This document shows, piece after piece, positions 42,305 through 44,105 of a stretch of DNA of 64,000 nt; positions within the stretch are counted from its first letter, which is position 1; every line of letters begins with the position of its first letter. The DNA is from Proteromonas lacertae (Eukaryota): positions 248,001 to 312,000 of the forward strand of contig NGBS01001160.1 in NCBI GenBank assembly GCA_002245135.1, given 5' to 3'. A program made the translations under genes and the position numbers. The notes under the pieces were generated by a model that worked only from the letters and a program-made list of their open reading frames with translations, was not told the origin of the DNA and searched no databases.

Positions 42305-42372
42305 TAGCATCATCAGAAACTTTCACTGGATATAACTCCATTTGAAGAAAATTTCTTCATCCATAAATTATT
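42305..42372 (-). promoter_or_regulatory. SECIS element (type II) in the thioredoxin reductase 3' UTR
   Basis: Minus strand reads AUGAA-gaaauuuuc-uuc-AAA-ugga-guuaua-ucca-gu-gaaaguuuc-UGAU: core quartet, paired helix II, unpaired AAA and apical mini-stem. Confidence 0.88.
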
Positions 42373-42404
42373 CTATATTATTTGTAAATGACGATAGTTT
42401 TCAC

Positions 42405-44105
<1,701 letters not shown>

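Follow-up and report, generated by a model that had tools for sequence, protein, structure and literature searches.

A thioredoxin reductase gene in Proteromonas lacertae with a penultimate in-frame UGA codon and a SECIS-shaped hairpin likely encodes a selenoprotein

A minus-strand gene in the 64,000-nt stretch of Proteromonas lacertae contig NGBS01001160.1 analysed here (hereafter the window) raises the question of whether an in-frame TGA at its 3' end terminates translation or is read as selenocysteine (Sec). Our analysis indicates that the gene probably makes a Sec-containing thioredoxin reductase (TrxR), an antioxidant enzyme, in which a hairpin 45 nt past the stop codon likely has the ribosome read UGA as Sec, provided that a surplus base in the assembled gene is, as it seems, an assembly error. 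The family of the gene, the position of the UGA, the Gly codon and stop that follow it, and the anatomy of the SECIS-shaped hairpin all fit a selenocysteine thioredoxin reductase and support this assignment.

The gene is a high-Mr animal-type thioredoxin reductase gene on the minus strand with five exons and an ATG at 44105, its exons and introns being placed by hand from homology. Exon 1 (44023..44105) carries this ATG, with an in-frame stop upstream of it, and a 27-residue basic leader; exon 2 (43530..43994) carries the FAD-binding GGGSGG and the N-terminal redox centre CVNVGC; exon 3 (43166..43481) encodes the NADPH-binding region; exon 4 (42938..43123) runs from AIGD to ELTP; and the coding part of exon 5 (42405..42909) encodes the dimerisation domain, HPTHAE and a tail that reads D-L-R-N-C-(UGA)-G-stop. 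The four introns thus placed are all GT-AG introns on the minus strand, with lengths of 28 nt (intron 1, 44022-43995), 48 nt (intron 2, 43529-43482), 42 nt (intron 3, 43165-43124) and 28 nt (intron 4, 42910..42937). The catalytic motifs CVNVGC, HPTHAE and ELTP are all intact, exons 1-4 are free of stops, and the predicted product has ~517 residues.

The domains are those of a pyridine nucleotide-disulphide oxidoreductase, and the best scores are for TrxR and thioredoxin-glutathione reductase (TGR) rather than for glutathione reductase or dihydrolipoamide dehydrogenase. In an exon-by-exon scan, TIGR01438 (thioredoxin and glutathione reductase subfamily) is the top NCBIfam model for all four TrxR exon pieces; each piece scored singly lies below the whole-protein cut-off of 476 bits, and the four scores give a rough sum of ~548 bits. 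The top PDB matches are high-Mr TrxR and TGR entries, which we take from their entry codes to be of the Plasmodium type and the mammalian type, and glutathione reductases rank lower. A C-terminal extension past the glutathione reductase end is present, whereas the glutathione reductase-like metagenome loci L003, L005 and L006 finish earlier. The first 27 residues of the leader contain seven Arg or Lys and no Asp or Glu, and a moderately amphipathic helix is possible. This composition suggests a mitochondrial-type import signal, which would direct the enzyme to a mitochondrion or a mitochondrion-related organelle.

The first-pass annotation had read the gene end as TGC-TGA-GGG-TAA with the TGA at 42411-42413, and a direct reading of the minus strand at 42416-42405 confirms this order. 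The codons are AAT (42419-42417), TGC (42416-42414), TGA (42413-42411), GGG (42410-42408) and TAA (42407-42405), and both this codon reading and the tails of homologues point to the in-frame TGA at 42411..42413 as the codon of a predicted Sec in the penultimate position. The tail Cys is found 20 residues past HPxxxE, and the His, Pro and Glu of that motif and the tail Cys are invariant in all 13 aligned sequences. We then surveyed the tails of the 150 best representatives among the homologues. A single Cys ends the protein 17-24 residues past HPxxxE in 79 of them, and in 68 of these 79 the distance is 20 residues, the same as in this TrxR. The remaining tails comprise CC plus one residue (8), a spaced Cys pair (20) and other ends (24), and 19 of the 150 lack an HPxxxE motif near the end. 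The single-Cys ends are presumably proteins that gene callers stopped at a Sec UGA, their stop codons being presumed to be UGA.

The residue that precedes the Cys in the 79 single-Cys tails is Gly in 48, Ser in 19, Asn in four, Asp in three and another residue in five. The annotation had also singled out N-C-U-G, in place of G-C-U-G, as the end of this protein. Asn does precede the Cys, but it is no special feature: with Asn in 4/79 tails and a residue other than Gly in 31/79, N-C-U-G is ordinary variation. We therefore rejected this tail as a novelty, since a Gly before the Cys characterises the mammalian enzymes but is not a defining trait of the family. All five members of a cluster (P0153) with 66% identity to this TrxR end in FDLRNC at the same place, with a stop codon presumed to be UGA. 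A metagenome scan for close relatives yielded 11 loci, none above 46% identity. An unrelated eukaryotic metagenome TrxR, L001 (1379-1650, plus strand), has the DNA end GC-TGA-GGA-TAA, that is, Gly-Cys-UGA-Gly-stop, and a SECIS-like hairpin lies 195 nt further on.

Folding and pattern matching place a type II SECIS-shaped element at 42295..42380 on the minus strand. Its predicted fold consists of an AU-rich helix I of 12 bp (42380-42369 with 42306-42295), a SECIS core in which AUGA (42360-42357) faces GA (42314-42313) to give UGAA/UGAU preceded by A, a helix II of 10 bp (42356-42347 with 42324-42315), an unpaired AAA (42343-42341) and a helix III of 4 bp (42340-42337 with 42330-42327). Helices I, II and III (12, 10 and 4 bp) appear in both unconstrained and constrained folds. 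The hairpin conforms to the published core rule UGAN/KGAW (stated in PMC3753652) and to the spacing rule given in PMC2375036, by which the quartet lies 10-13 nt from the AA and the AA 15-39 nt from the GA; the two distances are 13 nt and 27 nt here. A SECIS about 45 nt past the TAA, as first described, holds for the core A at 42360, which lies at 45 nt, but the whole element starts earlier, at 42380. It also runs 10 nt beyond the lower coordinate of 42305 given at that time, to 42295. The region of ~180 bp said to be shared with the convergent receptor gene agrees with our count of 178 nt between the two stops (receptor stop at 42226).

To judge how readily such a hairpin occurs, we used a SECIS-like pattern of ATGA, 10-14 nt, AA, 14-30 nt and GA with at least nine of ten helix II pairs, a threshold fixed after the hairpin had already been seen. 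In the whole window it matches once, at 42360. Across 30 shuffles of the window's full sequence the mean is 0.9 matches, so the pattern by itself is no rarity on that scale; when the 178-nt gap was shuffled 20,000 times, a match occurred in only 42. At 9/10 pairs the pattern misses the L001 control, which has eight pairs, and at seven pairs it also matches three of ten other loci. Our pattern is a rough filter. The fold of 42295-42380, with ends picked by hand, has an energy of -19.5 kcal/mol and a z of -3.29, and 2/200 shuffles are equally good; looser folding windows around the hairpin give z of -1.1 to -2.4. A search of Rfam returned no SECIS match in the region or in the whole window. This null result is uninformative, because the L001 control hairpin was missed as well.

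Electron transfer to thioredoxin through a Cys-Sec tail is the established chemistry of high-Mr TrxR. Within the dimer, electrons would pass from NADPH to FAD, then to CVNVGC and on to the Cys-Sec pair on the flexible tail of the partner subunit, where thioredoxin would be reduced. As a template for decoding we used the mammalian mechanism with an SBP2-type protein, eEFSec and Sec-tRNA, drawn partly from PMC3753652 and PMC7539508 and partly from general background. An SBP2-type protein would bind the GA/AG kink-turn core of the SECIS and recruit eEFSec with Sec-tRNA; UGA would be decoded as Sec, and translation would terminate at UAA. The organism presumably possesses the Sec machinery, and ARAGORN found no tRNA within the 64,000-nt window.

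The distance from UGA to the SECIS is short, with 50 nt to the core and 30 nt to helix I. For mammalian cells a minimum UGA-SECIS distance somewhere from 51 to 111 nt is reported, and the natural spacing in mammals is given as at least 207 nt (PMC3753652, PMC3316567), compared with 50 nt here. A fungal preprint describes SECIS elements that start ~40 nt past the stop codon (10.1101/314781). Our literature search on short UGA-SECIS spacing found no protist survey, which is weak evidence. A weak 8-bp hairpin of -6.2 kcal/mol lies over the UAA stop at 42384..42408 (minus strand), and its first bases read GTAAGT. Only 1/200 shuffles is equally good for this hand-picked 30-mer, and the hairpin competes with an alternative fold of similar energy that takes in the UGA. 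The last Gly codon, GGG, accounts for four of the 293 Gly codons counted, and its third base closes the UAA hairpin. Any role for this hairpin would be speculation. We offer as a tentative and rather doubtful extension that the TrxR is imported into a mitochondrion-related organelle of an anaerobic gut stramenopile and that its UGA is recoded with a SECIS at 50 nt, closer than the mammalian limit, with help from a hairpin that hides the UAA. If so, a short-spacing TrxR would offer a natural system in which to ask why a SECIS needs a minimum distance.

As assembled, the TrxR is out of frame by one base directly after the last intron, a break absent from the first-pass annotation, and its mRNA would stop after ~360 residues, short of the UGA. 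The break comes from one surplus base where exon 5 begins (42899..42903, minus strand). Alternative splice sites were ruled out as a fix: 19 frame-restoring pairs were listed, but every GT-AG or GC-AG pair in 43010-42850 that corrects the frame loses at least one of ELTP and QAGRYL, the conserved stretches that flank the junction. When the junction is read with X, it aligns without gaps to all three homologues tried. Breaks of one base also occur in the receptor gene, near 37813, where the alignment to a sister repeat is gap-free, and near 38692, where the alignment has small gaps, and further one-base shifts were seen by eye near 51045 and 53600. The window thus contains five apparent one-base insertions in coding sequence, at 37813, 38692, 51045 and 53600 on the plus strand and at 42903-42899 on the minus strand. 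They share no common motif, and programmed frameshifting was rejected on that ground. Because similar one-base breaks occur in neighbouring genes, the extra base in the TrxR is probably an assembly error, and the frame in the organism would be intact. The extra base could instead be real, in a copy or allele of a Sec-TrxR gene that was broken so recently that its tail and SECIS are still undecayed. The lack of a splice repair is in keeping with such a copy, and a spare gene is possible given the three H-TrxR genes reported for Blastocystis ST7 (PMC3129679). The TrxR gene is, however, without any other lesion, and one-base breaks in unrelated genes of the window are more simply explained by a shared assembly fault; we regard a broken copy as unlikely. 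The assembly seems to carry insertion errors, and reads would be needed before any broken gene of this window is called a pseudogene.

With the frame taken as intact, other readings concern the UGA and the hairpin. If UGA served mostly as a stop, with the SECIS too near or the machinery gone, the protein would end in Asn-Cys and have no C-terminal redox pair. The distance of 50 nt between UGA and the core is at the edge of the mammalian limit, and TGA terminates two of the eight other reading frames inspected, but Gly and a stop follow in the exact position of the family, and the SECIS-shaped hairpin has stayed intact in a genome of 27% GC. By analogy with a truncated TrxR-L of Acanthamoeba, which is reported to show no activity with thioredoxins (PMC8038987), a truncated product ending in Asn-Cys would be hard to keep under selection, and we consider this reading very unlikely. 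A different outcome would follow if GG|GTAAGT at 42408 acted as a donor in splicing: an intron of 36 nt running to the AG at 42373 would take out the UAA together with part of helix I, and it would either give the tail C-U-G-I-I-Y-G or turn recoding off. GTAAGT is the general splice donor consensus, and the match to it, the normal intron length, the TAG end and the rare codon GGG (4/293 Gly) all speak for a donor. However, all 12 placeable donors among 15 printed intron regions start with GTAT and none with GTAA, at least nine of the 26 GTAAGT sites in the window sit inside long open sense frames, and none of six possible acceptors recreates Gly-stop, which makes such an intron highly improbable. 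We also weighed whether the hairpin might be an intergenic box C/D snoRNA, which has the kink-turn in common with a SECIS, and we find this scarcely credible. The best Rfam matches are indeed C/D snoRNAs (ceN106, 19.2 bits, E 0.053), and the element contains AUGAAGA and CUGA; but every score is far under gathering (19 vs 60), the interior is a fully paired 10-bp helix plus the AAA bulge with no free guide, and the element stands directly behind Cys-UGA-Gly-stop.

Decoding of the UGA as Sec would depend on a transcript that includes the hairpin. A downstream polyadenylation motif of the Blastocystis type, TGTTTGTT, is described in PMC4159000. From the TAA to the end of the hairpin we found no TGTTTGTT-like motif with two or fewer mismatches, and the first one lies 124 nt past the TAA. 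The best candidate, with one mismatch, is at 42187..42194 on the minus strand, 211 nt past the TAA and within the last codons of the convergent gene; weaker minus-strand candidates with two mismatches are at 42281, 42275 and 42216. The first candidates lie beyond the hairpin, and the mRNA would therefore keep the SECIS if the organism uses that signal. Over the window, TGTTTGTT is not enriched (8 vs 6.6 expected). Of 14 frame ends picked by hand, three have an exact copy nearby, and six, roughly the number that chance would give, have one when a single mismatch is allowed. On the minus strand at 23923-23934 of the window, an exact TGTTTGTT is found 11 nt ahead of the point where an open frame ends, a placement as expected if polyadenylation makes the real stop codon, as in Blastocystis.

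We compared this gene with known systems. Two genes of Blastocystis ST7 were predicted by Denoeud et al. (2011) to encode selenoprotein H-TrxRs, and an insertion machinery was proposed as well (PMC3129679). Like the enzyme predicted here, these are high-Mr and would have a penultimate TGA-encoded Sec beside a Cys. The Blastocystis enzymes are predicted to be cytosolic and no SECIS is mentioned in the available part of that text, whereas the present gene encodes a basic leader and is followed by a recognisable SECIS-shaped hairpin of type II. The GC content is 45% in ST7 (PMC3129679) compared with ~27% here, where the introns of the TrxR gene are 28-48 nt long; ~27% is the value reported for Proteromonas, between those of tortoise and human Blastocystis isolates (PMC12129017). 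A search with the CCT7 protein encoded in the window placed it nearest to Logan proteins at 97% and 86% identity and, apart from one high-scoring partial plant record (49%), to named stramenopiles at 55-65%, with no named Blastocystis protein among the 120 matches listed. The short introns and the TGTTTGTT copies at some frame ends hint at Blastocystis or a relative, a tentative placement given that the motif is not enriched. Sec-TrxR in stramenopiles including Blastocystis is already published as a prediction, and this gene adds one more. A literature search on selenocysteine or selenoproteins in Blastocystis, largely confined to journals without subscription, turned up no article that deals specifically with its SECIS elements.

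Mammalian TXNRD1/2/3 and flatworm TGR (TIGR01438; PDB 2zz0, 1zdl, 2x8c and others) have in common with this TrxR the domain order, CVNVGC, HPxxxE, the tail length and, as predicted here, the Cys-Sec-Gly end and a SECIS in the 3' UTR. This TrxR differs from them in having Asn instead of Gly before the Cys and no glutaredoxin domain. In Acanthamoeba castellanii, TrxR-L is likewise a large protist TrxR that was mis-annotated to end at the UGA, which is followed by Gly-UAA and a predicted SECIS. Its SECIS, unlike the one here, is of type I and lies 282-355 nt past the stop, and the enzyme is cytoplasmic; a tRNA-Sec and an elongation factor are on record for that organism, and Sec is also without direct proof there, as far as the accessible text of the report goes (PMC8038987). 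Over half of 36 algal genomes, and Thalassiosira as well, are reported to contain Sec-TXNRD (PMC7539508, PMC2375036), which is counted among the most widespread algal selenoproteins (PMC7539508). With this wide occurrence in algae and diatoms, it is therefore an expected gene for a stramenopile, although algae and diatoms are free-living phototrophs and the host here is probably a gut-dwelling anaerobe. The gene suggests a need for selenium in this lineage, and its very short UGA-SECIS spacing and putative organellar location may be of interest. In annotation, gene callers will either truncate this TrxR at the Cys or split it where the extra base lies.

Several neighbouring genes were also noted. 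The TrxR gene stands head to head with a Ste24/M48 protease gene (window 44105-45817), and their spacing of little over 100 nt makes a shared two-way promoter likely. The convergent gene on the other side is a giant class C GPCR-like gene on the plus strand (~30200-42226) with many tandem periplasmic-binding (Venus flytrap-type) domains followed by 7tm_3; its 3' part, with repeated periplasmic-binding domains and 7tm_3, occupies 34743..42226. A second series of such domains is on the minus strand at 189-2563. Within the receptor gene, an intron-like stretch at 40366-40418 (plus strand) lacks a GT start and reads like a U12-type donor (TATCCTT). It fits the frame if GA starts it, and an assembly error is an alternative explanation; Blastocystis is reported to have GA-AG and U12 introns (PMC5608401). 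On the minus strand at 2911-7431, an intron-poor frame of 1,506 residues shows, by eye, EGF-like, beta-propeller-like and filamin-like stretches and then an apparent seven-transmembrane end.
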